64,000 nt of DNA from an archaeon (GCA_021107635.1 JAIOSL010000038.1:3512-67511), one strand, 5' to 3'; counted from the first letter of the stretch, positions 10,638 to 60,110 are shown. The notes: a model not told the origin generated them from the sequence alone. Numbers and translations are program-made.

Positions 10638-10639
10638 AC

Positions 10640-20240: not shown

Positions 20241-20260
20241 GGATAGATATACTATCAATG

Positions 20261-20735: not shown

Positions 20736-20756
20736 TGTTATCTCCTTATCGCATTC

Positions 20757-23267: not shown

Positions 23268-23325
23268 ATGAGAGAATACGATAAACTAGGTTATAAATGT
23301 TATCTGGAGGAAGATTACGGTATTA

Positions 23326-23454: not shown

Positions 23455-23463
23455 TTAAACACC

Positions 23464-23943: not shown

Positions 23944-23998
23944 GGGGTATTACCTCAAAATAAACTACAGAAAAGAGGTTTAAAAAGGTTTCTGTTAT

Positions 23999-28810: not shown

Positions 28811-28854
28811 GAATAAAAAACGCAAGAGTTTTATTTATAGGTGATGGTAGCCTG

Positions 28855-42188: not shown

Positions 42189-45100
42189 ATGCCGGTCAAA
42201 GACTATTATTATGAAATAGAGGACCAATATTACTCTCTTCTCGACAAACTTGATGAAAAAGGGATACCCGTTTACAACTTAGTGGATCCCCTCGAGGAAA
42301 GAGGAATCCCTACATTCCCACTACTGATAGGATTAGTCCTACTACTATTGCTATTGTTCATATACTTCCTGGTAGGTGGGTTCGGACAAAGCTTAACCAT
42401 TGACTTAATGGGAAACAGTATAGGCACCTTTGACCTGCCAACAATACATAATGTTTTAGGCGGAACACTTCCGTGGATAGATGATATCATTCCTGTTCTA
42501 AACATTGGAGACGAAATAACAATTAAAGTAAATGTAAATAGTAATGATGCTCCATTAGAAGGAGCTAAAGTAAGTGTAGTACAAGGCGGTTGGGCTAGAA
42601 CAGAAACCACAGGAACAGACGGAAAAGTAGAATTCAAAAGAGTTCCACGAGGAGAAGCCACAGTTACAGCAAAAAAAGAGAACTGCAGCAAAGAAACCAA
42701 AACAATAAACGAAACCGGCGAGATTACCTTTAATCTAAAATGTGGACTCTCCTGGCCTGGTGTAGAAGGATGTATGGAAATAGATGAAACTCTTTACAAA
42801 GCTAACTTAGTAGGAACAGATAACAAGAGACCAGAACAATGCACGCTAGCGATATACGACAATCAAACAAAAACAGTCAACCTTGACTGGAGAATAGACC
42901 CAATAAAGAATATTCTGTATATAGACCCAAGCGAATGTGTAATATCAGATTATGTTGTTGTAATAGATTGTCTAGCACACGAAAGAAGAGACCAAGCTAG
43001 AATCATAATAATAGAAATGGATGGAATTGGAGACGTCAGACTAAATCCAAAAGACACAAACCCAACAGACTGTCCACCAGGAGAACAATGGGACGACGCT
43101 CTACTAGAATGTGTACCCATAACCAACCCCTGCGGAGACAATGAAATATGGAACGAAGAACTCCAAGAATGCATTCCGATAATACCAGACGATGAAGTAG
43201 CAATATACATAGTAGTGAACGACACTAACGGAGACTACCTAAGCGGGATAACAGTAAAAGCAATAGATTCAACCGGAGCAGAAATCACTGAAGGGACAAC
43301 TCAAGACGTAACCGGAACAGCAGGTACAGCTACGCTCTCACTCAAAGAAAACCAAAACTTTAGGATAACAGCAGAAGACCCAAAAGGAGACTATTCTACG
43401 ATAACCACAGGAGAATACGTTGCAGACGAAACCCAAACAATAACAATAACAATGGAAGCAGGCGCACAAACCACGATAAGAGTAATAGACAAAGAAGACA
43501 AAAGCAGAATAAGCGGAGCAGTAGTATGGCTCTATGAAATACCACACACAGAAGTAACTAACACCAATGGAGAAGTAGAACTCACCCTACCAGCAAGCGA
43601 AACATTCAAAGTACAAGTATACAAAAATTACAGTCCATACATTGGAATAGAAAGTTCCGTTAACTCAGGTGAAGTCAACATAATTGAACTAGAAAAAGTA
43701 CTTCCAATAATGAGCGGTAACCTAACACTAACCGCAAAAAATTATCACGATCACGAAGAAACAATGGAAGGAGTAACATTTAAAGTGACAACAAAAATTG
43801 GAAACGTCACCCAAAAATCATGCATCACTGACTCAAACGGAGAATGTTACATGCCATTCCTAGAAAAAGGAGATTATAACGTATATGCCACGCCAAGAAT
43901 GGGAGAAAGTCAACACGCAGGAGATGTAACAATAGTAGCAGGAACAACAACAGAAAAAACATTCTATGTTAAACCAGCAACAACCCTGCTAAAAATCTGG
44001 GTAAAACACGGCAACAACCCATACACACCAAACGCAATGGTCTCAATACTAACAGAAAACCAGTTCAACGAATGGGAAATAATGCCAGGAATGTCAGGAG
44101 AAACAGATGGATACGGCTACAAAGAATTTGAAATTCCAAAAAATACTAAAATAAAAGTAAAAGGAACCCACGACGAAAGCGGAACACACTACTCAGCAAT
44201 ATGGGGACCACAAACAATAACAGAAAGCGAAAAAGAAATAACCCTAGAACTCAAAAAAACAGAAGTCGCAATAAGCTTCTCCCCAGAAATGGAACTAACC
44301 CCAAAAGACACTAAAACAGGAAACCTCTACTTTGGCCTACCATACGTAGACGAAGTAACACAAACAAAATACGACACAATACTAATAGAACTATGGGTAG
44401 GAAGCGACGGAGAAGCAACAGACCCAATAGCAACACCAATACTCATAAATGGATTCAACTCCAACAGCCTAGAACAAGACGACGTAAGCGTACTACGCTG
44501 CAGTAAATATCCATGCTCAAGCAGTTCCTGCTGCAACATAGGAGACGGAGAACAATTCAAATACCTAAAACTTGAAATCCAAAACACAGACGAATTCTAT
44601 GAAGACATCGGAACAGCATCCATCGAACTAGAACTCTATGCAAAAGAAATCCTTTCAACAGACCACACATACGTCAACATGAAAGGAACCTGGACTTCAA
44701 CCGCAGGAGACAGAACATCAGAAAACAAAACACTCATAAACCTAACAAGCGGAAGCCCCTGGACACCCCACCCACCACCAGGAGAGGGATTCACAGGACA
44801 CAGAGCAGGATACACAGAAGACCCATTCCAAGAAAAACCATGGTCACCACAATGGAGCACATACAACGGAAGCAACTTCTACCTAATGATAGACGCAGTA
44901 GCAGCAGGAGACATGAGCACATACCAAATCAAAATAGAAGACCAACCAGACGCAAAATCCTACCTAATGATAAACAACTACAACATCTCAATCACAAAAC
45001 AAGACGGCACACAACTATCCGAATCCAAAAAAACACTCAACCAAAAACTTCCAACAGGAGGCTACAACATAAATCCAGTAGCAGACCTAGGAAACTACTA

Positions 45101-48100
45101 CGCACTAGAAATGGAAGACACACTCCACCTAAAAATAGAACTTCAAGCCATCGCACCAACAGAAGGACAATACTACGAAACATACATTTTCGAAGACTAT
45201 GACGACCTGAAATTCAAAATAATAGAACTAGACGGAGAAAACAACGAAACAACAGAAGTAACCAACATAACCTCAAGCAACAGAGCCTGGCAAACATACA
45301 TCTGCGCGCCGCCAACATTCATACCTGGATGCGGATGGGGAACAATAAACGAAACCAAAATAGAACAAGGCTACCTTCTGCCAGTCTGGTCACAACAAGG
45401 TGCACGCAACTTCCAATTCAAATTCACATTAAACAACATTGGAGACCAAGACAAAGTACTAGACTTTGCTGCAACCGGAGCAATAACACTAGATTATATC
45501 CCACAAGATATAATAGTGCCTGCAGGAAGCTCAGTCAGCACATTCATTAACGGAACAGGCCTCGCTTCCACACAAGGAACACTTGAAATATCCATGGGAT
45601 TAGATGGAGGTACAATGAAACTATGGAAAACCGCAAACTTCGGTCAAGTAGACTATGAATATACACTATGGACAACCACAAGTATGATAGAACTAGAAGA
45701 AGAAGTTCTCACAAACATCGACTCACTAAAAGCAAAGCTATCCCGAAACGGAAACGCACTAGAAGACAACGCAATAAAAGTAGAATTCCAGTGCTGGGAA
45801 GGCGGAGACTACAACAACGTCAAAACACTATGGAGAGACAACGACTACTACAAATACGAAACCGCACTCCAACTAGAACCAGGAGAAAACGCGTGCATAC
45901 TCTTCGCAGAACACCCAGAAATCGGAAGCATGGGCAAATTCTACCACGTACAAGGAATGAAAATTGAACCAATTGGAAGTGATTTCCCACTACATACATT
46001 TAGTCAAGACTATCAAGAATACAGCATTGACATAGTAATGATTAATTCCTCATGGCTAGAACCTAAAAACTTTACGCTTGACACACTTGAATTCTTTGAA
46101 CTAACAGAAGCATACGACATGACAATACAAGTAGAAACATTCAATCAAGATGGAAGCACATATGACACAAAAAGCTCCACAACACCAATAACAGAAAACA
46201 TAACCATCCCAGAACAAGGAAGCGCACTCATAACATTAATAGCAACATATGATCCCCCTTCAGTAGGAAATGAACCATTATGCAGCCAAAGCGGCTTTGA
46301 CTTCAATGGAAACATTAAAATCACACCATACTCACAGCCAACAACACAATACAACTATAATTATAACTGTACTGCAGGAGGATCTGGAGGTGGATGGGGA
46401 GACTGTGAATGTGACAGAGATGGAGACACAATTACAACAGAATTAACTGCAGCAGATTCATCCGAAATACACACAGTAAACTTAATATCAAAAACAGAAG
46501 AAGACCTAGAAGTTACCATAGATTTCTCCGAAGACTCAGATGCCACATCTAAAGGCTACACGATGACACCAAGCATAAAAATATATAATTCTACAGATGA
46601 CTTAATTGAACAACAAACCGTCTCCCCTGGAACACCAATAATAGTAACACTCCCAGCTGAAGGGACCATTAAATTCCAACTAAATGCTTCAATAGACCCC
46701 CTAGAACAAGAAGGTAATGGTTGGACATGTGAAGGAGGGCTTGGTTGGTATGCATACAACATACTAACATTTACTCCAGAAGGAAACTCAGACAAAGAAG
46801 TATACTTCATACACACATGCAGCAAAACTGGAGGAAATGGAGGAGCTACAGGAGAATTAATACTCAGAGAAACACTCACTCCAACAGAAATTCTAGGCAC
46901 AGACTACGATTATTCTTGTGATTACATAGAAGATGTAAAAACAAGACTATGCGACGCAAAACAACTAGCAAATGCAATAAAAAGATTCAAACAAGACTAT
47001 GAAGAAGACATGCCCCTAAGCCTTACAGCAACATTTGCTTTCGGAGAAGACCATCTAGACAAACCAGACATGGAAAAAGCCACAGGAAACACAGTATCAT
47101 TTAATCCGGATAACCATCAAGCAGAATTAGTTTTTGACTTACAAGGTGCTACAGCAATAACCTGCGGAGTGATATCAGTAACGGCAACAAGACAAGCAGA
47201 AGGATACACTCTCCTAACAATAAACAATGACCAAAACAAACCATGGTGTGATTCAACCCCGAAAAAACCATACTTTTTCACAGGAACTGCAAACTATGAT
47301 GAAGGACTATCAACAGACAGCGAAAACACAAAATACATGAGATTTGAAGGAGATGACACAGAACTAACCTACTTCAAAAATGCAATGCTAACCTCAATAA
47401 ATGGCATTGAAATAGAAGATGTACTAGGATATCACTACAAAGGAGGAGCAGACCTAGAAAAACCAGGAACCACAATACCTCCAATCCACGTAATATACAA
47501 TGACCTAAACTGCACAGAAGAAGGAGACAGCGGCCCAAGAGATTATCTTGACTGTCCAAAACCAGATGGAACACCAGTAGATTTAGCTTGGCTGCAACAA
47601 GCATTCAGAGAACAAGGACACGAACTAGGAGGATACTATCATTATGTACAAGACAATGGAGTAGACAAATTTTACATAGGCCTTATATACTCCAGTGCTA
47701 CCCTAACAGAAAATAGTGATCTTAACCTAATGAGGAGACTGCTAGTAGGAAACCTTATGAGTCACTGGACAATAGGAAACAACTCATGCATACAAGACGA
47801 AGAAGAAGAACTCATACTAAGAGGCTCAACAACCTGTGGATACTGCTCTTCAGGAATATATGATGAGATACTCTTAGAAGAATACACTACTACAAAACCA
47901 AGCACAACAACACCAAAAGAGTCAGTAGGAAAATCACCAGACCATAACAGTATAGGAATACACCTAAAAGTTCATTTAGATGCAGGCAAATGCAAAATAT
48001 GGAACAAACAAAAAGAAACCAACGTCCAATGGATAACCCGCGGAGACGGAAACTGGAACAGCAATGAATTCACAGAAAACTTCCCAATAGACACAACAGG

Positions 48101-49082
48101 AATGACCGAACAACACAAAGTAGAAGAAAATGACATTGCAGTAAGATGCTTCACAATTGGAGGTTCACCAGGAAAAGAACTGCCAAAAGAAAGAGAAGTC
48201 ACAATAGACTATCAAGAACCAGAAATAACAGTTAGTTCTACAAACTATAACAAAAAAGAAGGAAACCTCTATAACCTAACATTTTACGTCCAAGACAACT
48301 TTGACGTCGAAAGCTGTAGCGTCAAATACCTAAACGATACAGACCAAGACGGAACACACGAAGAATACGACTGCCCACAATGCTCATGCGAAACAATAGC
48401 ACCAAACCAGCCAGGAGACACACAAATAGAAACACAATGCGAACTCTATCTCGCACAAGAAATGGATGCAACCGAATGCGGAGGAGAACAAAAAGGCAGC
48501 GAATGCCACAACAAATTCAAAATCACATGCACAGACGAAAATGCTAACGAAATAAGTGCAGATGTATCAGTAGCAAATGGAGAATCTTCACTAAACATAA
48601 CCTTCCCCAATGAAATCTTCGCTGCATTAATAAGACTAACAGGAAACTATGGAATCGCTACAACAGAACCAGGATACATAGAACCAAAAAACGCAAGCAC
48701 TAAAGTAGTATACAAAGAATCAAACAATGTATACTATACCAACTCAGAAGTAAATGACCTAGAATTCCACATAATGGGAAACTACAATATTGACGAAACG
48801 TGTGTTATGTACTTAAGAGACCCTGATGATCCAGATGGAACAGAACTAGGAACAAGTTGGTATGACCAAGTACACTACCCCAGCACGATAACATCAATAG
48901 TAGGAGAATCAACACCAACAGATAAAAAATTCTATCTTTCAACCACCTCAGACGAAATAAAACTAAAAGAAGATGGACATTACCTCTTCAGAGTAATATG
49001 CGGAATCCCAGAAAACTATGATAATCTGCAAGCAGAGGGAGGAACCCTCAACGACCTAACAGAAGATTCACCACTTCCTTGA
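42189..49082 (+). CDS. Giant surface protein (2297 aa), paralogue of the upstream gene
   Basis: 6.9-kb uninterrupted ORF; 28 of the first 53 aa identical to the 33470 gene product without gaps; same TM position; CarboxypepD_reg-like motifs (GAKVSVVQGGWARTETTGTDGKVEFKRVPRGEATV). Confidence 0.9.
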   Translation: MPVKDYYYEIEDQYYSLLDKLDEKGIPVYNLVDPLEERGIPTFPLLIGLVLLLLLLFIYFLVGGFGQSLTIDLMGNSIGTFDLPTIHNVLGGTLPWIDDIIPVLNIGDEITIKVNVNSNDAPLEGAKVSVVQGGWARTETTGTDGKVEFKRVPRGEATVTAKKENCSKETKTINETGEITFNLKCGLSWPGVEGCMEIDETLYKANLVGTDNKRPEQCTLAIYDNQTKTVNLDWRIDPIKNILYIDPSECVISDYVVVIDCLAHERRDQARIIIIEMDGIGDVRLNPKDTNPTDCPPGEQWDDALLECVPITNPCGDNEIWNEELQECIPIIPDDEVAIYIVVNDTNGDYLSGITVKAIDSTGAEITEGTTQDVTGTAGTATLSLKENQNFRITAEDPKGDYSTITTGEYVADETQTITITMEAGAQTTIRVIDKEDKSRISGAVVWLYEIPHTEVTNTNGEVELTLPASETFKVQVYKNYSPYIGIESSVNSGEVNIIELEKVLPIMSGNLTLTAKNYHDHEETMEGVTFKVTTKIGNVTQKSCITDSNGECYMPFLEKGDYNVYATPRMGESQHAGDVTIVAGTTTEKTFYVKPATTLLKIWVKHGNNPYTPNAMVSILTENQFNEWEIMPGMSGETDGYGYKEFEIPKNTKIKVKGTHDESGTHYSAIWGPQTITESEKEITLELKKTEVAISFSPEMELTPKDTKTGNLYFGLPYVDEVTQTKYDTILIELWVGSDGEATDPIATPILINGFNSNSLEQDDVSVLRCSKYPCSSSSCCNIGDGEQFKYLKLEIQNTDEFYEDIGTASIELELYAKEILSTDHTYVNMKGTWTSTAGDRTSENKTLINLTSGSPWTPHPPPGEGFTGHRAGYTEDPFQEKPWSPQWSTYNGSNFYLMIDAVAAGDMSTYQIKIEDQPDAKSYLMINNYNISITKQDGTQLSESKKTLNQKLPTGGYNINPVADLGNYYALEMEDTLHLKIELQAIAPTEGQYYETYIFEDYDDLKFKIIELDGENNETTEVTNITSSNRAWQTYICAPPTFIPGCGWGTINETKIEQGYLLPVWSQQGARNFQFKFTLNNIGDQDKVLDFAATGAITLDYIPQDIIVPAGSSVSTFINGTGLASTQGTLEISMGLDGGTMKLWKTANFGQVDYEYTLWTTTSMIELEEEVLTNIDSLKAKLSRNGNALEDNAIKVEFQCWEGGDYNNVKTLWRDNDYYKYETALQLEPGENACILFAEHPEIGSMGKFYHVQGMKIEPIGSDFPLHTFSQDYQEYSIDIVMINSSWLEPKNFTLDTLEFFELTEAYDMTIQVETFNQDGSTYDTKSSTTPITENITIPEQGSALITLIATYDPPSVGNEPLCSQSGFDFNGNIKITPYSQPTTQYNYNYNCTAGGSGGGWGDCECDRDGDTITTELTAADSSEIHTVNLISKTEEDLEVTIDFSEDSDATSKGYTMTPSIKIYNSTDDLIEQQTVSPGTPIIVTLPAEGTIKFQLNASIDPLEQEGNGWTCEGGLGWYAYNILTFTPEGNSDKEVYFIHTCSKTGGNGGATGELILRETLTPTEILGTDYDYSCDYIEDVKTRLCDAKQLANAIKRFKQDYEEDMPLSLTATFAFGEDHLDKPDMEKATGNTVSFNPDNHQAELVFDLQGATAITCGVISVTATRQAEGYTLLTINNDQNKPWCDSTPKKPYFFTGTANYDEGLSTDSENTKYMRFEGDDTELTYFKNAMLTSINGIEIEDVLGYHYKGGADLEKPGTTIPPIHVIYNDLNCTEEGDSGPRDYLDCPKPDGTPVDLAWLQQAFREQGHELGGYYHYVQDNGVDKFYIGLIYSSATLTENSDLNLMRRLLVGNLMSHWTIGNNSCIQDEEEELILRGSTTCGYCSSGIYDEILLEEYTTTKPSTTTPKESVGKSPDHNSIGIHLKVHLDAGKCKIWNKQKETNVQWITRGDGNWNSNEFTENFPIDTTGMTEQHKVEENDIAVRCFTIGGSPGKELPKEREVTIDYQEPEITVSSTNYNKKEGNLYNLTFYVQDNFDVESCSVKYLNDTDQDGTHEEYDCPQCSCETIAPNQPGDTQIETQCELYLAQEMDATECGGEQKGSECHNKFKITCTDENANEISADVSVANGESSLNITFPNEIFAALIRLTGNYGIATTEPGYIEPKNASTKVVYKESNNVYYTNSEVNDLEFHIMGNYNIDETCVMYLRDPDDPDGTELGTSWYDQVHYPSTITSIVGESTPTDKKFYLSTTSDEIKLKEDGHYLFRVICGIPENYDNLQAEGGTLNDLTEDSPLP

Positions 49083-49098: not shown

Positions 49099-49242
49099 TT
49101 TCAACAATCTCCTAGAAAACGCTCAAGAACTACTCTTAAACATATTGTCCTACTAGGCTAGAATGTATACAAATACTACACCAAGGATAAACTAGTGCGT
49201 ACATTCACCACAATAAACCTGCTAACGCGTTAACGGCAAGGC

Positions 49243-49250
49243 TTTTATAT
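49243..49250 (+). promoter_or_regulatory. TATA-box-like element for the small-membrane-protein array
   Basis: TTTTATAT centred ~25 nt upstream of GTG 49272 (leaderless spacing). Confidence 0.35.
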
Positions 49251-49271: not shown

Positions 49272-49583
49272 GTGGTATTTGAAATCCTAGGAGAAATAAA
49301 AAACAGTTTTGAACTCCTAATGCTAGGATTCAAAATAGTCCTCATGATATTCCTAATAGGCTGGGTAAGAGGACATCTAGGAGGAGGACTCATAGCAGCA
49401 GTAGTCATACTAATCCTAGGATACTTTGTAATATTCGAATACTTCATAATATTCGGACCAATGTTCCTATTCTACCTCATAATAATCATAGGAGGCGGAG
49501 TAGTAGTCCAAGACCTAGCATTCGGCAAAGAACACTACACTAAAGGCGGAAATGACTACAGTGAAGGATACCCACACCCATAA
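49272..49583 (+). CDS. Small membrane protein 1 of 8 (about 3 TM)
   Basis: GTG start downstream of TATA-like box; 103 aa, hydrophobic Gly-rich helices, short polar tail. Confidence 0.5.
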   Translation: MVFEILGEIKNSFELLMLGFKIVLMIFLIGWVRGHLGGGLIAAVVILILGYFVIFEYFIIFGPMFLFYLIIIIGGGVVVQDLAFGKEHYTKGGNDYSEGYPHP

Positions 49584-49681
49584 GGTGATAAAAAACGAAA
49601 ATAAATCAAAAAGGATTCCTGCCAGCCCTAGCTGGAATACCGCTAGCACTAATCGTAATAGTAACAATATTCCTATTCCTA

Positions 49682-49951
49682 ATGGTAGGACTTCCCGCAA
49701 TCATGGAATTCTTTCCTATACTCAAGCTGCTCTTCATGCTCTTCGCAGCACTAATCATATTCAACTGGATAAGAAACACAGTAGGACCCGGAACACTATC
49801 CCTAGTAATCGCAGCAATACTAATATACATATTCGTATTCCAACTCACATGGATCACCTGGGGAATATGGGTAATGTACGCACTACTAACATACGGACTA
49901 TGGTCAATACTCTTCTGGGGCATACCACTCGTATTCAAAGGAAAAACTTAA
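49682..49951 (+). CDS. Small membrane protein 2 of 8
   Basis: 89 aa from the first ATG; hydrophobic; in-frame upstream codons 49592-49681 encode a further TM helix without a canonical start. Confidence 0.5.
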   Translation: MVGLPAIMEFFPILKLLFMLFAALIIFNWIRNTVGPGTLSLVIAAILIYIFVFQLTWITWGIWVMYALLTYGLWSILFWGIPLVFKGKT

Positions 49952-49991
49952 AAAAGAAAGAATGCAAAAAATATGTAAGAGGTAGTTGGTT

Positions 49992-50231
49992 ATGGGAGAT
50001 ATATTCAACGACGTGCGACTCGCACTAACACTGATAGTACTAATATACCTATCCCAATGGGCCATATCAGGAACCGGCTCAAGAAAGATAGGAATAGTAG
50101 TAGCACTCGTGCTCGTATACCTCACAGTTTACCAACACTTCATACTACTAGTACTAGTAATGGCATTCTTCTTCGGATATGCCTTCTTTGAATCATTTGA
50201 ATCAACATTCATCCCATTAAATCCAGAATAG
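49992..50231 (+). CDS. Small membrane protein 3 of 8
   Basis: ATG 49992 8 nt after AGAGGT (TTG 49986 alt); 79 aa, 2-3 TM. Confidence 0.5.
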   Translation: MGDIFNDVRLALTLIVLIYLSQWAISGTGSRKIGIVVALVLVYLTVYQHFILLVLVMAFFFGYAFFESFESTFIPLNPE

Positions 50232-50241
50232 AGGTAAAAAA

Positions 50242-50541
50242 ATGATAGACACATTCACACTAGTGGTCTTCCTCATCCTAATAATGATAACACTGCAAGT
50301 TCAACGCCTAGAAATAGCAGCAGTAATCATACTCATATTCCTACTAACCCTCAAATCACACACAATGATATTCATAGTCCTAATCGCAGGAGCAATAGGC
50401 TACATAGTACACCAAACACTAGGAATAGAACTACAACTAGTCATGATAAGCATAGTAGTCCTCATAATCGCAGCAGCAATGTTCACAAACAAAAAAGAAG
50501 GCCCAGGCGCGTACACGCCAGGAATGTTTGGAGTGATATGA
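50242..50541 (+). CDS. Small membrane protein 4 of 8
   Basis: 99 aa; GAGGT SD; ~3 TM; tail KKEGPGAYTPGMFGVI. Confidence 0.5.
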   Translation: MIDTFTLVVFLILIMITLQVQRLEIAAVIILIFLLTLKSHTMIFIVLIAGAIGYIVHQTLGIELQLVMISIVVLIIAAAMFTNKKEGPGAYTPGMFGVI

Positions 50542-50886
50542 ATGGATGTGCTCACGCTAGTACTGCTTTTTCTCATAATAGTGATGGGCATGACAGTTCC
50601 AAACATGCAATTCATTTCATTGATTGGAGGAATAATCATGGCAACATACATTTTTGGAGCTAGAGAAGACCATCGACCTCCAGCACCTGCAGGAGGAATA
50701 AAAGTCAGGCCAATAGTAGTACAAAGAAGATATGTAGGACCAGACTCAATATACCCTCAAGAAATGAAAATGAGAGTAAATCCAGCCTGGGACAGCAGAC
50801 CATGGTTTGAACAAGCATCTGCTGCAGCAGGACAGTTCGCTGGATTCGTAGCTAACACAGGCAAACCCAGTAGACCAAAGGATTAA
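50542..50886 (+). CDS. Small membrane protein 5 of 8, PAGG-motif family
   Basis: 114 aa; ATG abuts previous TGA; 2 TM then RPPAPAGGIKVRPIVVQ..MKMRVNPAW..GQFAGFV. Confidence 0.6.
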   Translation: MDVLTLVLLFLIIVMGMTVPNMQFISLIGGIIMATYIFGAREDHRPPAPAGGIKVRPIVVQRRYVGPDSIYPQEMKMRVNPAWDSRPWFEQASAAAGQFAGFVANTGKPSRPKD

Positions 50887-50925
50887 AATACCACAAAATG
50901 TATATTTATTGCATTGGGTGTGTGA

Positions 50926-51315
50926 ATGGATAAACCGATAGGTTTAATGATAGTAGTGGCGTTGCTAGCGTTCTTTCTTAAATTAGAATGGCTGGCAATG
51001 GTCATGATAATAGGAATACTGCTCATTCTAGTTGCATCCATAGAGTTAAGAAGACCTTCTCCAGTACCAGCAGGAGGAAGAAAAGAGGAGATTCTCACTC
51101 CTGTAGTAGTTCAAGACCTAGGAGAACCACCTTATTTGTACCCACCGAACTTTGAGCTCAAATATAATCCGAACGAATCATTGATGCCACTTTATGATAT
51201 AGCAGGACAATCACTAGGCTCACTAGTAAGATTCTTCGTTAGAGCAGCAAGAGGAGACCCTCAAGCATACAGAAGCGGCAAAGGCAAAGTTGGCAGAAAG
51301 GTGAAATGGAGATAA
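50926..51315 (+). CDS. Small membrane protein 6 of 8, PAGG-motif family
   Basis: 129 aa; 2 TM then RRPSPVPAGGRKEEILTPVVVQ..FELKYNPNE..GSLVRFFV; basic tail. Confidence 0.6.
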   Translation: MDKPIGLMIVVALLAFFLKLEWLAMVMIIGILLILVASIELRRPSPVPAGGRKEEILTPVVVQDLGEPPYLYPPNFELKYNPNESLMPLYDIAGQSLGSLVRFFVRAARGDPQAYRSGKGKVGRKVKWR

Positions 51316-51319
51316 GAAC

Positions 51320-51685
51320 ATGGATTTAGATATGCTGCTTTTGTTAGTGATTTTAGGAGGACTTACTTATTACTCGCCTTATCAATGGGCAGCATACATA
51401 ATCGGAGCGATAATTCTTCTCGTCTTCTTGGTTGGAGGAACCAACAGCAAGAAACAAGACTATCGCATCCCTGTAGGGGGAGTGCGAGTGCATGGAGCTG
51501 AAATGGTTGAACCAATCATAATAGAAACGACCAAGACAGCTCCCTTCCGCATACCAAAAAGCATTGATATGAAAGTCAATCCAACCTGGAAAGCATTAAG
51601 CCAACTAGAAAAAATGAGTTATAAGGGAGGCGCAGGCTTAGCCAGGTTTGTTTACCGGAGTGTGTTTGGAGGTAGGTGGGAGTGA
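51320..51685 (+). CDS. Small membrane protein 7 of 8, PAGG-motif family (PVGG variant)
   Basis: 121 aa; 2 TM then YRIPVGGVRVHGAEMVEPIIIE..IDMKVNPTW..AGLARFVY. Confidence 0.6.
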   Translation: MDLDMLLLLVILGGLTYYSPYQWAAYIIGAIILLVFLVGGTNSKKQDYRIPVGGVRVHGAEMVEPIIIETTKTAPFRIPKSIDMKVNPTWKALSQLEKMSYKGGAGLARFVYRSVFGGRWE

Positions 51686-52104
51686 ATCCATTCCTCCTGA
51701 CAATAGCTATTGCTTTTTTTGGTTTGTTGTTCAATGCACAATGGCTTTTCTTGTTAGGTGCATTAGGACTCATCATAACAGCATTATTCAAACTTACTGC
51801 CAAGCCAATACGTGCTCCGGCAGGAGGAACCGTGGTTTCACATAAACTAATGCAGGCTCCGATAGACGCATGGGATGAAGAGAACATTGCCACGTACATG
51901 ACTGCATTGGGAGGACAGAGAACTCTTACCATGGGTAACATGGATGATCCGTTCAAAGTACTCTCAGATAGCAGTAAAGGATCAGTACCAGCTGATTTAA
52001 TACGTAATAGGCTTCCTTTCAGTAATTATGGCAGAGAAAGCCTTTTCGAACATTTTTTCATTGGTCTGCCAATTAACATGGGCACACTATTCCGAAAGAA
52101 GTGA
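51676..52104 (+). CDS. Small membrane protein 8 of 8, PAGG-motif family (divergent tail)
   Basis: GTG start overlapping previous gene; 2 TM then KPIRAPAGGTVVSHKLMQAPID; longer divergent tail. Confidence 0.5.
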   Translation: MGVNPFLLTIAIAFFGLLFNAQWLFLLGALGLIITALFKLTAKPIRAPAGGTVVSHKLMQAPIDAWDEENIATYMTALGGQRTLTMGNMDDPFKVLSDSSKGSVPADLIRNRLPFSNYGRESLFEHFFIGLPINMGTLFRKK

Positions 52105-52138
52105 AAGTTTATTAAACGGGATTGCTTTAAAGAGGTTT

Positions 52139-52747
52139 ATGCGAGCCTCTAGCGCAATTTTATTTTTGATTCTAGTTTCTGGAGCATTTGCAATAGAACC
52201 AGTAATAAACAAAGAAGATTTAACTGAACTTGGCTGCACAGTAGAAGAAAACTATGTTATGTGTCCTCAAGTAGCAACTGTCAGAAACGCTCAAATACAA
52301 TACACCAGTGACGTAGAATGCCAAACTTTGCTTGGAGAAGACCAAGGATGCATAGGCACAGCAAAAATTGGTGAAATTAAGTTCAAAGAATGTCAAGTAT
52401 ACATGCCTTTACTCCAAGGAGACGTTGATTACAGTGGAGTGCAATACAATTATAATTGCATAGACAAAGAACTGCCCGCAAACACAGAAGTCAACATTGT
52501 TACGTTTCAAGATTTGGTAACTGATTGCACGCTGGTTGAAGGCGATGAATACTATGAAGTCAAAACTTGCAAAACCAGCGGGTCAAGAATAATAGCTAAC
52601 ATTTCCGTGTCTGAAGAAGAAGGAGAAAAATATGTTCTGGTAGGAAACTCTTTTCCTGACACTGGCTTCCACTTTGAATTATGGCAATTTGCTGTACTGA
52701 TTGTCTTGGCAATAGCTTTGTGGGTATGGTACAAAAACAGAAAATAG
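52139..52747 (+). CDS. Secreted Cys-containing protein with C-terminal TM anchor (202 aa)
   Basis: ATG 52139 behind AGAGGT gives signal peptide MRASSAILFLILVSGAFA-IEP; 8 Cys; C-terminus ..FPDTGFHFELW-QFAVLIVLAIALWVW-YKNRK. Confidence 0.6.
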   Translation: MRASSAILFLILVSGAFAIEPVINKEDLTELGCTVEENYVMCPQVATVRNAQIQYTSDVECQTLLGEDQGCIGTAKIGEIKFKECQVYMPLLQGDVDYSGVQYNYNCIDKELPANTEVNIVTFQDLVTDCTLVEGDEYYEVKTCKTSGSRIIANISVSEEEGEKYVLVGNSFPDTGFHFELWQFAVLIVLAIALWVWYKNRK

Positions 52748-53209
52748 TTACTGACCGCCTAAACGAGTAAGCATTTTCTTGTTTATTTTAATCAAACTTT
52801 CATTCAACCGCTTAGTCGCTGCAATCATTGGCTTTATTTCTTCAATATCAGTTCTTATCTGCTCCAAATCTTCACGAATCTGTTTAATTTCTTCAGTAGT
52901 AAACACTTGCTTTTCATGCACTTCACCTAACTGAGTATGAACGCGCTCTATGTCATTCTTATGCTCATCTAACTTTTTTATCGCAGGTCTTAAATGATCT
53001 CCACTCTCAAGAATCTCCTTAGTTTCAACAGCCTGCTCATGCACTTCAGCCACATTTACCGTTGGCTTAGCCTCAATGATAATATCATTAATTTCCTCGT
53101 CATTCAAACCCATCTGACGCAAATTAGTCTCAATGTCTTTTCGAGGCACACCCTGCGCGCTCATTTCTTTGACTATTGACACAATTTTATTGAAAACTGA
53201 GCGCTCCAT
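52748..53209 (-). CDS. Coiled-coil protein, unknown
   Basis: ATG 53209 behind GGGGGT SD (MERSVFNKIV..); heptad-rich E/K/I/L C-terminal half; ORF-track start 53254 less likely. Confidence 0.45.
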   Translation of the reverse strand: MERSVFNKIVSIVKEMSAQGVPRKDIETNLRQMGLNDEEINDIIIEAKPTVNVAEVHEQAVETKEILESGDHLRPAIKKLDEHKNDIERVHTQLGEVHEKQVFTTEEIKQIREDLEQIRTDIEEIKPMIAATKRLNESLIKINKKMLTRLGGQ

Positions 53210-53616
53210 TGTTACCCCCAACATTTTTAAGTTATGAGGTAATAAAACAATCACTAGATATATAAAAGGTTAGGGTGATTTAACGAAGACTCTTGAACTT
53301 CCTCATGGGCCATGGAGGCAGGTATTATCCGGAATCTGGGATAACCGTGAAATATCATATCATGAAAATCCAGACAAACTCTTACTAGTAATGATCTATG
53401 ACAGGAAAGGAGAAGAAGTAAGAGGAATGGCCACCCTAATGACCAAATTTTTTTTCATTAAAGGAAACGCTTCCAGTCTAGCCAATGAACTAGAAGGAAA
53501 CATCATACTAATCCAAAAAAAAAACAAGTGAATTCAAAGGATCTTTCCTAGGATTAACCACAGACCCAGTCTACGTCGAATACAGTCCACGAAACCTCAT
53601 CAACCAAATAGACAAC

Positions 53617-54747
53617 ATGCACAAAACAATAGAACAACTAAACCAAGAAACACTCAGAAAATCAAGAGATTACAACATAGACTTAATAGACATAAAACAT
53701 GCACCTAAAGAAACACTAAGAGAACTGCTCGGCGAACCACTTGCCCTGCCCTCTGCAATAACAAGAAAAATAGGACCCCAAACAACAATGGAAAACCCAA
53801 CAGGACAAGTATTCCTAGGCATTGACCTGCAAAGAAAACCCGTGAAAGAACCAATAAAAAACTTTGCTTTAACCATACTATCAGGAGAAGACACAAAAGC
53901 AGCAGCACACGTAATAATGGAAGGATTCATACTAAATGGCATACCTGGCATCATTTTTGACGCTAAAGACGAATTCGCACGAATGGACACACCAAACCGC
54001 AAATCAACAATCCAACAATATAGCCAAGAATTAGAACCATTAAGCATGCCACTAAGAAACTTTAACCCAGGCAACGATGTGTTCATTGATTTAAGCGCAA
54101 TAAATGAAAAATTGTTCTCGGATATTGCAGGAATGAACGATAAAAAAACCGCCGAATTAATAGGAAAAGCCATATCAGGAAAAAAAATACGAAGACTAGA
54201 AGAAATAATCAAACGCATGGAAAGAGTAACAGAAGAAGAACAACGATATTATGCTTCTCGCGCATCACGCATTTGTAGACTATTAGAAGATATTCACCCC
54301 GGCTTGTTCAATGGACCAGTAGAAGCAAACGAACTAATCGCACCCTGGATGAAAAGAATAGGACGAATCGCACATATCAATTTAGTCGGCCTCGACAAAC
54401 GCATAATAAAAGGCATCCTATACTCAGTAGTACGCACTGTCTACGAAGAACTAAAAAATGAAGCATCTCCAGAACAAATTAAAATAGCTATTCTGATAGA
54501 AGGACCAGACATAGTAAGCGGAAAAGGAAACTACATAGACAAAGAGATAAACGCTTTAATCAAACTTTGTACAAGCACAGGCATAGGCATTTGCATACGC
54601 ACACCAAACGAAAACGATTTAGACAGAGATTTACTAATGAACGCAACAGCAAAAGTAACATGCCTAGAAAAAAACCAAATTTCAATAAAAACCCAGACCA
54701 ACAAACCCTACAGACTCTTATTAAGACCAACACTTAGCTCTTATTGA
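53617..54747 (+). CDS. HerA/FtsK-superfamily (DUF87-like) protein with degenerate Walker motifs
   Basis: 376 aa; order GQVFLGID..TILSGEDTKAAAHVI..GIIFDAKDEF..IAHINLVGLD..KIAILIEGPD..STGIGICIRTPN parallels HerA, but the GxxGxGK[ST] P-loop and acidic Walker B are not conserved. Confidence 0.4.
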   Translation: MHKTIEQLNQETLRKSRDYNIDLIDIKHAPKETLRELLGEPLALPSAITRKIGPQTTMENPTGQVFLGIDLQRKPVKEPIKNFALTILSGEDTKAAAHVIMEGFILNGIPGIIFDAKDEFARMDTPNRKSTIQQYSQELEPLSMPLRNFNPGNDVFIDLSAINEKLFSDIAGMNDKKTAELIGKAISGKKIRRLEEIIKRMERVTEEEQRYYASRASRICRLLEDIHPGLFNGPVEANELIAPWMKRIGRIAHINLVGLDKRIIKGILYSVVRTVYEELKNEASPEQIKIAILIEGPDIVSGKGNYIDKEINALIKLCTSTGIGICIRTPNENDLDRDLLMNATAKVTCLEKNQISIKTQTNKPYRLLLRPTLSSY

Positions 54748-55259
54748 ACCTTCTTACGCTTCCCTAATTCTTTCTCAACCTTCTTCTCAATAATATCACT
54801 AAGCTCAGTGATAGTAACATACTCCATAGGATTAACAGAAGCAAGAATATACTTCAACTCATCCACTTCCTGCTTCAAATTAGACATAGCCTTCCTTAAA
54901 CTACGCACATCATTCTCAGCATCCGCCGTCTTAAAAGATCCAGCCTCTTCAACCATCAAAGAAGTAGGAACACGCAAAGCAGCTTTACGAGAATCCGCCT
55001 TAATCTGATCCAATTCAGGACGAATAGAAGCAAGAACCTCAAGTTTAGTCTGAGATAAATCAGGCATTGCACTCCCAAAATGCTCAAGCTCCTTCAACTT
55101 TTTATTATGAGAAACCAAGGTTCTGCCAATCACCTGCTCATTCATTTCAATAATTTTCAGCCTCTGAGCCAACAATTTCATCTTTGCATCAATAGAACTA
55201 ATCGCACTGTTTACTTCAACAGCACCCTGTTCACCTGATCGCGGAGTTCTTCTAGGCAA
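54741..55259 (-). CDS. Coiled-coil protein, unknown
   Basis: 172 aa (TTG start; ATG 55181 alt); long heptad-like stretches (KMKLLAQRLKIIEMNEQ.., LRKAMSNLKQEVDELKYIL). Confidence 0.4.
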   Translation of the reverse strand: MPRRTPRSGEQGAVEVNSAISSIDAKMKLLAQRLKIIEMNEQVIGRTLVSHNKKLKELEHFGSAMPDLSQTKLEVLASIRPELDQIKADSRKAALRVPTSLMVEEAGSFKTADAENDVRSLRKAMSNLKQEVDELKYILASVNPMEYVTITELSDIIEKKVEKELGKRKKVQ

Positions 55260-55327
55260 GCCAACACCTTTAAAATATAGATTTGACTCAATTAACTACA
55301 CCTCAGTATAAAAAGCTTGTGATAAAA

Positions 55328-57604
55328 ATGAAGGGTGTCTTACTAAACGTACAAAGCGAAAACTCGCTCATAAAGCTCTTCATAAAAAATACAGAAACCG
55401 GCAAAATAGAAATACTTGAAGATGATACATTCCAACCCTACTTTTACCTTCAAACTGATGTACCAGAAGAAGCTGAAAAACTAGGACCAGGACTCAAAAA
55501 AATAGAAAAAGGCAAAATGCTTAAAATAATCACTGAAGGTCCTGGAGACGTTCCAATACTAAGAGAAAAAGCAGCAAAACTAGGCGAAATCAGAGAATAT
55601 GACATTCCATACACACAACGCTACTTGATAGATAAAGGCATCAAACCAATGAAACGCTACGAATGGCAAAGCCAAAACGGCAAACTAATCTCATACAAAG
55701 AATCACCAGGAGAATGGAAAATCACCAGACAAGCATTTGACATAGAAACATATAGTGCAGACGGCGTCTTCCGCATGGGAGAAGACCCAGTCATAATGGC
55801 ATCATTTTGGAACGACCTGCAAGGAAAAGTCCTCACATGGAAACCCTGCGACAAAGGCTTCGTCCAAATACTAAAAGATGAACAAGAACTAATAGAAGCA
55901 ATAAACAAAGAACTTGAAACCGTAGACGTAGTCTATACCTACAACGGAGACAACTTTGACCTACCATACATCAAAAAAAGAAGCGAAAAATTAGGCTTGA
56001 CCCACCAAATAAACGTCAAAAACGCAGGACCACGCCTAAAATCAATACTCAAAAAAAGCATTCACTTAGACGCATACACTGGCGTCAACTTCATGCGCGT
56101 AATCGGTTCACTACGCTTACCACGATACACCCTAGAAGACGTTTACAAAGAATTCACAGGAAAAGAAAAAATAGACATAGAAATACCAGACCTATGGGAA
56201 AACTGGGAAAAAGGACAACTAGACACAGTAACAGAATATTCCCTGCAAGACGCAGAAGCTGCCTATGTCATAGGTGAACGACTACTACAATTGTACATTG
56301 AGCTCGCTAAACTACTCAATCAAACAGTCTATGACGTCTCACGAATGAGTGCATCACAAATGGTAGAACTACTACTAGTAAAAAAAGCCTTCGAAAGAAA
56401 TGAAATCTCACCAAACAGACCAGACGAAAACGAATTCCGCACTCGCATCCGCGAACCAATCAAAGGAGCATTCGTACGCCAACCAGAAAGCGGACTCCAC
56501 GAAAACCTAGTAGTACTAGACTTCAGATCACTATACCCCTCAATAATAATCAGCCACAACGTAAGTCCTGACACACTGGACTCCAACGCAAAAGAAGCGT
56601 TTACTTCACCCAACGGATACAAATTCCGCAAAGACAAACGAGGCATCATTCCAGAAATGCTTGAAGAAGTCCTAAACAAACGTTTCGAAATAAAAACTAA
56701 ACTCAAACAAACCAAAGGAGAAGAACAAAAACGCTTAAACGCAGAACAACAAGCCCTGAAAATCCTAGCAAACGCCACATACGGCTACACACTTTACGCA
56801 AGAGCACGCTGGTACAGCCGAGAATGCGGAGAATCAATCACAGCATGGGGAAGACAATACATCCAAGATATCATAACAAAAGCAGAAGAAGCAGGATTCA
56901 AAGTACTCTATGGAGATACTGATTCGGTTTTTTTAAAGCGCGAGGGAAAAACCAAAGAAGAGGTTCTCACGTTCCTGAACGACTACAACAAGAAACTTCC
57001 CGAAGCCATGCAGCTTGAACTTGAAGGATTCTACACAAGAGGTATTTTCGTAACCAAACGCGAAGGCGGAGCAGCAAAAAAACGCTACGCACTCATCAGA
57101 GAAGACGGACAAGTAGAAATCAAAGGCCTTGAATTCGTGCGCAGAGACTGGAGCGCACTAGCAAAAAAAACCCAACGAAAAGTCATTCAAGCAGTCCTAG
57201 AAAACAAAATAGAAAAAGCCAAGGAAATAGTCTGCTCTACCATAGAAGACATTCGAGCAGAAAAAGTCCCAGTAGAAGAATTTGTCATTTACACGCAACT
57301 CAAACGCAGAATAAAACAATACACAGCCATAGGCCCACACGTCAAAGCTGCAATAAGACTTAAAGAAAGCGGTTCAAAAGTCAGAGTCGGCACAACCATT
57401 GGCTACGTAGTAACACGAGGCGCAGGAAATATTGGTGATAAAAGCCATCCAATACAATTAATCGGCTCGCGCAAACCAGATCCAGAATATTACATTTCGC
57501 ACCAAGTCTTGCCTGCAGTAATGAAAATTCTCGCAGAACTAGACATAAACGAAGACGATTTAAGCATAGGCGGAAAACAAAGCAGTTTAGATGCTTGGAC
57601 TTAA
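55328..57604 (+). CDS. polB: Family B DNA polymerase (archaeal replicative type)
   Basis: Exo I FDIET, Exo II YNGDNFDLPY, Exo III YSLQDA, motif A DFRSLYPSII (56519-56548), motif B KILANATYGY, motif C YGDTDS (56909-56926), KKRYA; ATG 55328 (MKGVLLNV..) preferred over TTG 55283. Confidence 0.92.
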   Translation: MKGVLLNVQSENSLIKLFIKNTETGKIEILEDDTFQPYFYLQTDVPEEAEKLGPGLKKIEKGKMLKIITEGPGDVPILREKAAKLGEIREYDIPYTQRYLIDKGIKPMKRYEWQSQNGKLISYKESPGEWKITRQAFDIETYSADGVFRMGEDPVIMASFWNDLQGKVLTWKPCDKGFVQILKDEQELIEAINKELETVDVVYTYNGDNFDLPYIKKRSEKLGLTHQINVKNAGPRLKSILKKSIHLDAYTGVNFMRVIGSLRLPRYTLEDVYKEFTGKEKIDIEIPDLWENWEKGQLDTVTEYSLQDAEAAYVIGERLLQLYIELAKLLNQTVYDVSRMSASQMVELLLVKKAFERNEISPNRPDENEFRTRIREPIKGAFVRQPESGLHENLVVLDFRSLYPSIIISHNVSPDTLDSNAKEAFTSPNGYKFRKDKRGIIPEMLEEVLNKRFEIKTKLKQTKGEEQKRLNAEQQALKILANATYGYTLYARARWYSRECGESITAWGRQYIQDIITKAEEAGFKVLYGDTDSVFLKREGKTKEEVLTFLNDYNKKLPEAMQLELEGFYTRGIFVTKREGGAAKKRYALIREDGQVEIKGLEFVRRDWSALAKKTQRKVIQAVLENKIEKAKEIVCSTIEDIRAEKVPVEEFVIYTQLKRRIKQYTAIGPHVKAAIRLKESGSKVRVGTTIGYVVTRGAGNIGDKSHPIQLIGSRKPDPEYYISHQVLPAVMKILAELDINEDDLSIGGKQSSLDAWT

Positions 57605-59989: not shown

Positions 59990-60110
59990 CGGGCCCGAGG
60001 GGATTCGAACCCCTGATCTTCTGGTATCTTCCACCCAAAAAGGGAGGTCTCGAAACTGTAGGTTCCGAAGTCCGAAGCCAGATGCCTTATCCAAGCTAGA
60101 CTACGAGCCC
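59990..60110 (-). tRNA. tRNA-Arg (anticodon UCG) with 46-nt intron at canonical 37/38 position
   Basis: Minus strand GGGCUCG-UA-GUCU..AGGC-A-UCUGG-CUUCGG[intron 60071-60026]A-CCAGA-AGAUC-AGGGG-UUCGAAU-CCCCU-CGGGCCC-G; 7-bp acceptor stem; anticodon at 60075-60073; no encoded CCA; T-rich tract follows. Confidence 0.8.

Follow-up and report, generated by a model that had tools for sequence, protein, structure and literature searches.

Directly downstream of two giant surface-protein genes of a DPANN archaeon, we find an array of nine small genes (g1-g9) encoding membrane proteins. Their orthologue groups (OG1-OG9) succeed one another unchanged at 18 distinct loci of Iainarchaeota/Diapherotrites and Micrarchaeota. 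Because this order is kept in two phyla, beside the giants and usually near pilus-assembly genes, the nine-gene set probably belongs to an apparatus of the cell surface, as a component not described so far. More specifically, g1-g9 could together make up a single hetero-oligomeric complex of the cytoplasmic membrane that is specific to these lineages, belonging to a type-IV-filament-like apparatus with the giants as cargo or passengers. We put the probability of this reading, in which the single complex, its topology, its binding partners and its function are inferred from genomics, at roughly 45%.

Known cultivated DPANN archaea are tiny cells living attached to host archaea. To our knowledge, there is as yet little explanation of their attachment to the host or of the exchange of material between the two; giant surface proteins are prime suspects for the contact. 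Nine uncharacterised proteins that travel, in two phyla, with giants, a pilus-type ATPase and platform, and a sortase-like protein offer a testable candidate for the base of a host-contact apparatus. Several of the protein families as well as the N-terminal module (N-module) of the giants are new here, having no match in the Pfam and NCBIfam copies searched. If the genes did encode a new assembly or anchoring machine, they would widen the known range of archaeal type-IV-filament-like systems.

Gene organisation and conservation of the array

Eight of the genes lie co-oriented at positions 49,272-52,104 (+ strand) of the window, i.e., the whole analysed stretch of 64,000 nucleotides. The original prediction had described eight small membrane-protein genes behind a TATA-like box, and all eight ORFs were confirmed at these coordinates, with orthologues in 17 other distinct loci. 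Since the orthologues share 22-73% identity with the window proteins (a range from the first six-locus set) and occur in unchanged order, the ORFs are, by sequence comparison, true genes. The box, TTTTATAT (49,243-49,250, + strand), is located 22-29 nt upstream of the g1 start, which implies a leaderless transcript of the array; most other loci carry similar TATA-like boxes ca. 26-38 nt upstream of the OG1 start. The scan for sigma-70 promoters and terminators uses a bacterial model and is uninformative for an archaeon. The genes are tightly packed: across the 18 loci, six of the eight junctions have a median gap of 0-8 nt, and some genes overlap or abut.

Downstream, nearly all loci remain syntenic through the PolB and methionine aminopeptidase genes, and the conserved order may therefore partly reflect a general collinearity of related small genomes. 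At one locus (L016), an inversion carried the giant together with OG1-OG5. Conserved neighbours with a looser link to the array follow g9, namely two coiled-coil proteins (52,748-53,254 and 54,741-55,259, both - strand) and, between them, a HerA/DUF87-like protein (53,274-54,747, + strand), whose gene is split by an A10 run at 53,514-53,523. A viral or mobile origin was rejected, as no relatives of the array were found in IMG/VR and the array resides among chromosomal housekeeping genes. No description of this cluster was found in the literature.

The nine membrane proteins

The first four proteins have almost no soluble parts and contain three to four transmembrane (TM) helices each, not two to three as had been predicted. 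The 103-residue g1 (OG1; 49,272-49,583, + strand) starts with GTG and has three TM helices, a conserved cytoplasmic loop (GWVRGHLGGG) and a conserved FGP turn. The next protein, g2 (OG2; 49,585-49,951, + strand), has ca. 120 residues, four TM helices and the loop NWIRNTVGPG. Its canonical ATG at 49,682 would give 89 residues (49,682-49,951), and a conserved extra N-terminal TM helix is encoded in frame upstream of this ATG (49,592-49,681), where no canonical start codon is present; the OG2 HMM spans residues 1-118 of the stop-to-stop ORF 49,592-49,951. A GTG at 49,585 would fall into the g2 frame given one more A in the A6 run at 49,590-49,595. Because the conserved helix is encoded upstream of the ATG, the 98-nt gap between g1 and g2 is probably an artefact; the same junction measures <=10 nt in 16 of the 18 loci. 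The best-conserved member of the array is g3 (OG3; 49,992-50,231, + strand), with 45-73% identity in the first six-locus set. It comprises 79 residues beginning with MGD (81 residues from an alternative start at 49,986), three short TM helices and the loop QWAISGTGSRK. Weak, sub-threshold matches to the MnhE antiporter subunit appeared for four of 15 OG3 members (best E-value 0.014), MnhE being the sole recurring Pfam signal among the array proteins. The 99-residue g4 (OG4; 50,242-50,541, + strand) has about four TM helices and a conserved C-terminal tail, EGPGxY[ST]P. The first three proteins are weak paralogues with a common W-x-[RK]...G-x-G cytoplasmic loop (hhalign 81% for OG1/OG2).

Proteins g5-g8 had been predicted to form one family. 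This is supported: g5, g6 and g7 are clear paralogues by profile comparison (mutual hhalign 97.8-98.1%, E-values of 1e-12 to 1e-13), and g8 shares only the N-terminal hairpin (hhalign 93-95% between OG8 and OG5/OG6, limited to the first ca. 60 residues). The likeness among g5-g8 is above chance, cross-HMM matches within the window reaching E-values of 1e-7 to 1e-11. The 114-residue g5 (OG5; 50,542-50,886, + strand) consists of a 2-TM hairpin, a basic linker, the motif RPIVVQRRYxGPxSIYP and a C-terminal helix. The same architecture is found in g6 (OG6; 50,926-51,315, + strand; 129 residues) with the motif EEILTPVVVQDxGEPPYLYPP and in g7 (OG7; 51,320-51,685, + strand; 121 residues) with the motif LEPIIIETTKxAPFRIP. 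In g8 (OG8; 51,682-52,104, + strand; 140 residues, or 142 from an alternative GTG start at 51,676), a hairpin related to those of g5 and g6 is followed by a tail unlike that of g5-g7 (HKLxQAPxDxW ... LPFxxYGRxS ... GLP); OG8 was not detected in three Micrarchaeota loci.

The motifs PAGG and NP-x-W, originally thought to define the family, are restricted to the window's own clade, Micrarchaeota having lost them. The conserved core of the family instead comprises the 2-TM hairpin, the basic linker, the motif x-P-[IV][IV][IV]...P..[IYL][YP]P and the C-terminal helix, and what stays invariant throughout the family alignment A7 (30 sequences) is a set of three proline columns, which correspond to P57, P67 and P72 of g5. 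The HMM search for homologues that had been suggested was run exhaustively against 1.84 billion representatives and recovered 116 family members, all of 63-146 residues except for one spurious match of 3,130 residues. Among the 116, OG5, OG6 and OG7 account for 35, 35 and 38 sequences (ca. 1:1:1), which is the pattern of obligate partners. This ratio, the overlapping or abutting genes and the conserved promoter box make it almost certain, on genomic grounds, that g5-g8 are expressed together as subunits of a single membrane assembly.

Throughout the family, a hydrophobic hairpin of ca. 38 residues precedes a tail with 14.1 K+R versus 8.1 D+E. Given this excess of K+R, the tail is presumably cytoplasmic according to the positive-inside rule. 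The AF2 monomer model of g5 is confident for the hairpin and the C-terminal helix (pLDDT of ca. 80), and its most conserved segment is extended, of low confidence and without a fold of its own, which would suit a motif that takes on its fold upon contact with a partner.

The original prediction missed a ninth member of the array, g9 (OG9; 52,139-52,747, + strand; 202 residues). Its sequence predicts a signal peptide, an all-β ectodomain with seven invariant cysteines, and a C-terminal TM helix (residues 181-201 in the AF2 model) with a basic tail, the helix and the basic tail being present in all orthologues. Ahead of this helix, the orthologues show no conserved motif of the PGF, VPXXXP or PEF type.

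None of the proteins had been recognised as belonging to a known family, and our searches agree with this. Pfam and NCBIfam searches with the nine proteins and 72 orthologues gave only scattered sub-threshold matches typical of hydrophobic sequences, and the profiles of OG1, OG3 and OG5-OG7 gave nothing credible when run against PDB sequences. Foldseek searches against the PDB returned zero matches for the g5 model and none of significance for g9 (best E-value 0.04 with a TM-score of 0.25, to OB folds, judged meaningless). The membrane ring or anchor and the chaperone- or usher-like partners that had been suggested are conjectures, and nothing in the array resembles an usher or a chaperone.

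Giant proteins and the pilus-type neighbourhood

The two giants upstream of the array comprise 2,877 residues (giant protein 1; 33,470-42,103, + strand) and 2,297 residues (giant protein 2; 42,189-49,082, + strand). Both begin with the N-module (residues 1-45 in giant protein 2) and a TM helix, which are followed in giant protein 2 by CarboxypepD_reg/SpaA-type Ig-like domains. The carriers of this conserved module of ca. 45 residues plus TM helix are mostly giants of 1,000-2,900 residues. An ORF of at least 980 residues is located directly 5' of OG1 in 14 of the 18 loci, and an N-module protein, either a giant or a protein of 131-134 residues, was detected 5' of the array in 12 of the 18; in the remaining loci, the N-terminus of the upstream giant is divergent or lies outside the DNA examined. 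The upstream giants vary in number and size across the loci, and their adjacency to the array persists; at one locus (L013), 7.6 kb of unrelated genes lie between the N-module protein and OG1. In a reciprocal scan of metagenomes with a four-sequence alignment of the N-module, nine of 28 loci had the array downstream, four showed another giant running off the contig, 15 ended inside the giant, and none contradicted the linkage.

The N-module ends with ...[KRAQH]-G-[IV]-P-[ST]-[FL]-P, and a hydrophobic helix comes next. The arrangement is similar to the class III cleavage site [KR]G|FS[LI]FTP[LM]VG of neighbouring pilin-like proteins, with an exceptionally long leader. Homology between the N-module and the tails of g5-g8 was rejected (hhalign probability <=3%), a result that bears neither way on binding.

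Upstream of the giants, a + strand operon is headed by a mini archaeosortase/exosortase-family protein of 174 residues (30,656-31,180; Pfam Exosortase_EpsH, 28.3 bits; TIGR04178, 40.9 bits versus a cut-off of 23), which is kept at the equivalent position in 17 other locus records. Next to it lies a 743-residue pilin-like protein (31,197-33,428, + strand) with the class III-type signal peptide MKRG|FSIFTPMVGT. Relatives of this protein adjoin giants in other loci, and pilin-like proteins with [KR]G|FS[LI]FTP[LM]VGT lie on either side of giants both in the window and at many other loci, L019-L022 and L036 among them. A PilC/FlaJ-like protein (699 residues; weak T2SSF match) and a FlaI/PilB-like ATPase (767 residues; T2SSE, 75.2 bits; FlaI model, 144 bits) are divergently transcribed (24,445-28,825, - strand) and followed by pilin genes (20,286-24,448). 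Inspection and pattern search identified further predicted class III signals in the locus (MFNEKGQ|AFDAF..., MFGTKGQ|EEGPF... and others).

T2SSE/T2SSF-like orthologues occur at the equivalent position in 11-13 other loci. The T2SSF-like, T2SSE and archaeosortase-like genes show the window's arrangement in 11 other loci, one complete case being a Micrarchaeota contig (L037 = L020), and five more loci are partial at contig edges. Six N-module loci whose upstream sequence extends for at least 4 kb have no T2SSE and archaeosortase genes directly upstream, and two further T2SSE/T2SSF sets in the window (143-3,192 and 9,075-11,898) have no such array. The original prediction had staked itself on linkage to giant N-anchored proteins and a pilus locus, and the array is indeed linked, in both directions, to N-module, T2SSE, T2SSF, archaeosortase and pilin-like genes.

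Candidate function and competing readings

In the preferred reading of a single complex, g1-g4 would form the membrane core, and g5-g8 would each insert a short 2-TM hairpin, with the basic tail exposed to the cytoplasm and the C-terminal helix possibly lying on the membrane. Through its motif P-[IV][IV][IV]...P..[IYL][YP]P, the tail could engage a partner by strand addition, the candidates being the other tails, the ca. 45-residue cytoplasmic N-module of the giants and the PilC/ATPase platform. The only extracellular domain would be supplied by g9. Such a complex might dock the giants' membrane-anchored N-termini next to the pilus machine and keep them in place, or assist in their assembly. 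Counted against this reading are the lack of homology to known pilus, archaellum or secretion accessory proteins, the collinearity through housekeeping genes, the six N-module loci with no T2SSE and archaeosortase genes directly upstream, and the separation of N-module protein and OG1 at L013.

Other known systems offer partial parallels. LapA-type bacterial adhesins are very large, repetitive Ig-like proteins retained at the envelope by their N-terminus, with dedicated small partner genes adjacent. The giants of the window are alike in size, Ig-like repeats and small-gene neighbours, but they belong to another domain of life with a different envelope, share no homology, and have a cytoplasmic N-module with a TM helix. 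In the bacterial export gate of flagella and type III secretion, FliP, FliQ and FliR are small, tandem-encoded, paralogous hairpin or 4-TM proteins that form one pseudo-symmetric assembly; the array has only this design principle in common, without a sequence match or an FlhA/FlhB-like partner. The TM helix and basic cluster at the end of g9 resemble substrates of archaeosortase systems (ArtA-ArtG; PGF-, VPXXXP- and PEF-CTERM), and a mini archaeosortase gene is present in the cluster; however, g9 lacks a conserved signature motif before the helix and g1-g8 lack such a signal altogether.

A bolder proposal, that OG1-OG9 form an unprecedented machine docking the N-module, unrelated to known secretion and pilus accessories, which assembles or anchors a host-contact appendage of Micrarchaeota/Iainarchaeota with the giants perhaps as "giant pilins", seems to us rather doubtful.

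We also consider it unlikely that the proteins form an autonomous membrane complex, such as a transporter of ions, lipids or metabolites or a system for envelope integrity, that is unrelated to giants and pilus and was placed here by the regional gene order shared among related, streamlined DPANN genomes. The synteny into the PolB and methionine aminopeptidase genes, the array's own promoter-like box, the genomic nature of its link to the giants and the OG3-MnhE matches would suit such a complex. However, the adjacency stays while the giants vary, the inversion at L016 kept giant and OG1-OG5 joined, and a search that starts from nothing but the N-module leads back to the array at each informative locus. 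The MnhE matches are far below threshold, and no locus contains large transporter or antiporter subunits; for an Mrp/Mbh antiporter in particular, no MnhB-G family matched above threshold and no MnhA/D-like large subunit was found in any locus.

It is similarly improbable that the array serves only the adjacent type IV pilus, as an accessory of the alignment or stator type (a PilMNO or FlaF/G/X analogue), the giants being unrelated or pilus-associated adhesins. Type IV filament systems do employ small accessory proteins, bitopic or polytopic, that are lineage-specific, and the FlaI/PilB-like ATPase, the PilC-like protein and the class-III-signal pilins are divergent neighbours whose conservation accompanies that of the cluster. 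Like the accessories of the archaellum (FlaF/FlaG/FlaH/FlaX) and PilM/N/O or GspL/M, the array proteins are small, lineage-specific and found with an ATPase, a platform and pilins of these types, and g9 likewise has a β-rich ectodomain on a single TM anchor. The P-loop protein nearby, which is probably incapable of ATP hydrolysis, and the two coiled-coil proteins loosely recall FlaH and FlaX by analogy only. In contrast, the array shows no sequence or fold similarity to these accessories (Pfam, NCBIfam; Foldseek for g5 and g9), and its nine subunits are mostly polytopic or hairpin proteins encoded after giant genes and outside the ATPase operon. Moreover, 20 kb of giant genes separate it from the ATPase/PilC genes, it lies directly 3' of N-module proteins, and the other T2SSE/T2SSF sets of the window are without an array.

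Far less probable is a Ced/Ted- or type-IV-secretion-like conduit for DNA or macromolecules, with g1-g4 as VirB2/VirB3/CedA1-like proteins and a HerA/VirB4-like motor. The small subunits of these systems (CedA1/CedA2, VirB2, VirB3), including the small 2-TM proteins of Ced systems, are likewise hairpin proteins near a HerA/VirB4-superfamily protein (PMC9905601), and the 2-4-TM array proteins lie near the DUF87/HerA-like gene (Pfam E-values of 3e-4 to 6e-4). Its faint CedB match, however, reaches 14.9 bits versus a cut-off of 700, and the gene forms a transcription unit of its own, convergently flanked and displaced in L001, L011 and L012. A Ced/Ted-like system driven by this protein was rejected, because the Walker A motif GK[ST] is missing in 15 of 15 orthologues and no locus has a 6-7-TM VirB6/CedA-like channel protein within or beside the array, whose largest member has four TM helices. 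The ATPase motifs of these systems are absent, and no homology to them is detectable. The OG1 and OG3 profiles, with which a VirB2/CedA1-like pilin was sought, matched no PDB sequence; such pilins escape recognition by sequence, even when Ced is compared with Ted (PMC9905601).

Finally, the notion that the small ORFs are non-genes or chance hydrophobic ORFs, to which their small size and the irregular starts of g2 and g1 (GTG) might lend some colour, is refuted by the conservation of sequences and motifs in 17 other loci and 116 representative clusters.

Nine membrane-protein genes downstream of the giants

The evidence supports a predicted nine-subunit membrane assembly, encoded by the small genes g1-g9 (49272-52747, + strand), as part of a larger conserved surface-apparatus supercluster, which also contains a type-IV-filament ATPase and platform, pilins, a sortase-like protein and giant proteins sharing an N-terminal module (N-module). 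The window originates from a DPANN archaeon of the Iainarchaeota/Diapherotrites type, and the NCBI entries of the array proteins carry the name "archaeon" (K8R43_04090-04110, 81-kb contig). As originally predicted, eight co-oriented small ORFs lie 3' of two giant genes (33470-42103, 2877 aa, and 42189-49082, 2297 aa), and the predicted coordinates were exact. A ninth gene directly 3' of g8, g9 (52139-52747), belongs to the array; its 202-residue product has a signal peptide and an ectodomain in which seven cysteines are invariant, and it ends in a TM helix followed by a basic tail. None of the array gene products matched a Pfam or NCBIfam model.

A TTTTATAT box at 49243-49250 is located 22-29 nt 5' of the GTG start of g1. 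Because similar TATA-like boxes precede the first gene of the array by approximately 26-38 nt in most of the related loci, the array probably has its own promoter and a leaderless transcript. The start of g2 (49584-49690) is irregular: the conserved N-terminal TM helix of its product is encoded in frame from 49592 without a canonical start codon, and one extra A in the A6 run at 49590-49595 would bring the GTG at 49585 into frame. This suggests a homopolymer assembly error, a real frameshift or an unusual start being less likely.

Orthologues and paralogous families

A profile search with g5-g8 retrieved 22 unannotated proteins. From the contigs of the profile matches and a scan of one genome per GTDB species, we obtained 17 distinct loci beyond the window. 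In these loci, the HMM of each gene picked out a single orthologue, and the genes are arranged from OG1 to OG9 (the orthologue groups of g1-g9). The identity to the window proteins was 22-73% in the first set of six loci, and the tblastn identity of OG6 went down to 27-39% in the more divergent loci of the GTDB scan, named Micrarchaeota. The genes are very closely packed: six of the eight junctions have median gaps of 0-8 nt, against approximately 47 nt between OG2 and OG3 and 34 nt between OG8 and OG9; the OG2-OG3 junction is the only one never shorter than 30 nt. In two Micrarchaeota loci (L019, 8186-9043; L021, 8110-8913), an unrelated gene is inserted at this junction, the product of which appears nucleotidyltransferase-like by inspection (motif GS..G..D.DM). 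In another Micrarchaeota record (L037, from the contig of L020), the g9 homologue (621-1220) does not follow g8; it is found beyond the PilC/ATPase genes, about 9 kb 5' of the giant, which still places it within the supercluster. An extra membrane protein of 61-69 residues, "OG0", precedes the array or a short N-module protein in some lineages (L001, 8500-8685; L002, 7834-8043; L005, 1524-1709; L013, 1-168); it is missing from the window, where we found an 11-residue remnant-like match near 49165-49197.

The proposed g5-g8 family is real, as judged from hhalign profile-profile probabilities of 97.8-98.1% among OG5, OG6 and OG7 and 93-95% for OG8 against OG5/OG6, the latter for the hairpin only, in agreement with cross-HMM matches within the window. 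By the same comparison, g1-g3 form a second, weaker paralogous set (81% for OG1/OG2, 39% for OG1/OG3) with a common W-x-[RK]-x3-G-x-G loop between the TM helices. The PAGG and NP-x-W motifs, originally taken to define the g5-g8 family, turned out to be features of the window's clade, which are gone in Micrarchaeota in an alignment of 45 members. The conserved core consists of two short TM helices (together about 38 hydrophobic residues), a K/R-rich linker, x-P-[IV]-[IV]-[IV] followed after 6-7 residues by P-x-x-[IYL]-[YP]-P, and a C-terminal helix, with one proline invariant across the 45 sequences and three in a 30-sequence alignment.

When 1.84 billion cluster representatives were searched exhaustively with an HMM, only 116 family members were recovered, 115 of which have 63-146 residues and the same architecture. 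A 3,130-residue match without an aligned stretch was treated as spurious. The members divide into OG5, OG6 and OG7 as 35/35/38, which we read as the signature of three subunits always occurring together.

Linkage to giant proteins and pilus-type genes

Both giants begin with the N-module (33470-33652 and 42189-42371), about 45 residues with the consensus [YF]Y-x-[IL]-E-D-K-[YW]-Y-x-[LF]-L-D-x-L-[DE]-x-K-G-[IV]-P-[VI]-Y-x-[VI]-[VI]-D-P-[IL]-E-x-x-G-[IV]-P-[ST]-[FL]-P, followed by a TM helix; no Pfam model describes it. Its end (G-[IV]-P-[ST]-[FL]-P and the hydrophobic helix) is similar to the region of class III signal cleavage in the pilin-like proteins encoded nearby. An ORF of at least 980 residues lies immediately 5' of OG1 in 14 of 18 loci, and the module HMM detected an N-module protein upstream in 12, five of which have "mini" versions of 131-134 residues. 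These are located next to OG1 in L005 (1714-2115), L010 (1842-2237), L011 (7511-7906) and L012 (7381-7779), and apart from it in L013 (165-569), where 7.6 kb of unrelated genes are inserted between them. In the other loci, the N-terminus of the giant lies beyond the fetched DNA or is divergent.

It is unlikely that the array is an unrelated membrane complex, merely syntenic with the giants. In L016, an inversion moved the giant and OG1-5 as one, and a metagenome scan starting from the N-module alone found 28 loci, none of which contradicts the linkage: nine continue downstream with OG1 onward, four with another giant running off the contig, and 15 end in the giant. Between the two inverted halves of the L016 array (4581-6577), also from Micrarchaeota, lie unrelated genes, the products of which look radical-SAM-like and TlyA-type methyltransferase-like by inspection only.

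Upstream of the giants, the window has a divergent set of PilC-like (699 aa) and FlaI/PilB-like (767 aa) genes on the minus strand and archaeosortase-family and pilin-like ([KR]G|FS[LI]FTP[LM]VGT) genes on the plus strand. This order recurs in 11 loci, one complete example being a Micrarchaeota contig, and partially at contig ends in five more. The mini archaeosortase/exosortase-family protein (30656-31180, 174 aa), which heads the giant-gene operon and is kept in the supercluster, has archaeosortase B as its best model, below that model's cut-off. Its possible substrates are g9 and a 1569-residue protein (15549-20258, minus strand). In both, the C-terminus consists of a TM helix and a basic tail, with an acidic residue and Trp in front. 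Three separate T2SSE/T2SSF sets of pilus-type ATPase and platform occur within the 64 kb (143-3192, 9075-11898, 24445-28825), and in one of the ATPases (9075-10637), 4Fe-4S ferredoxin domains are fused at the N-terminus, which is unusual.

In working principle, the array comes nearest to the lineage-specific accessory membrane proteins found with type IV filament machines. Neither sequence nor fold places it in any of these families. A complex serving the pilus alone seems improbable to us, with the same odds as mere synteny. A Ced/T4SS-like conduit is very improbable, as it fails on the ATPase motifs and the VirB6-like channel is missing. We would place the array among the surface apparatuses associated with type IV filaments, made up here of protein families that are new; should it prove to be an independent machine, it would be of a wholly new kind. 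In the searchable literature, we came across no account of the cluster, of the g5-g7 family or of the N-module.

Topology, proposed function and downstream genes

The tails of the g5-g8 family contain on average 14 K+R versus 8 D+E, and therefore presumably face the cytoplasm according to the positive-inside rule. The AlphaFold2 model of g5, based on 30 sequences (mean pLDDT 70), consists of a hairpin (3-18, 22-42) and a C-terminal helix (87-106) with pLDDT of about 80. Residues 43-86, where conservation is highest, are extended and of low confidence, and we read this stretch as a linear motif that may become ordered upon a partner. The g9 model (pLDDT 73) has an all-beta ectodomain and a TM helix. 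Foldseek returned no match for the g5 model, and the g9 model had no significant structural neighbour.

Based on genomics, composition and the one monomer model, we propose that the array might be a lineage-specific membrane platform, which would dock the membrane-anchored N-termini of the giants, or help assemble them, beside the pilus machine. The cytoplasmic tails of g5-g8 would provide the interaction elements, and g9 would be the only extracellular part.

In most loci, the array is followed by genes for two coiled-coil proteins, with a HerA/DUF87-like gene between them, and then by PolB; insertions in L001, L011 and L012 make this link looser. The HerA-like protein, in which the Walker A lysine/GK[ST] is absent from 15 of 15 orthologues, is probably a non-catalytic P-loop protein. 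In the window, its gene (53274-54747) is split by an A10 run (53514-53523), and one A fewer gives ...IQKKTSEFKGSF as in the orthologues. No canonical start codon for the conserved N-terminus of the protein (LELPHGPW) is present 3' of the TATA-like ATATATAAAA at about 53259. The family B DNA polymerase has 773 residues in the window (55283-57604) versus approximately 1,180-1,200 in three related loci (L001, 16397-19984; L004, 14533-18132; L013, 14445-17993), and according to precomputed Pfam matches, an intein containing a LAGLIDADG domain accounts for the extra length in L001 and L004. A 121-nt tRNA match (59990-60110, minus strand; Rfam, 49.4 bits), missed by ARAGORN, is probably interrupted by an intron of about 50 nt.
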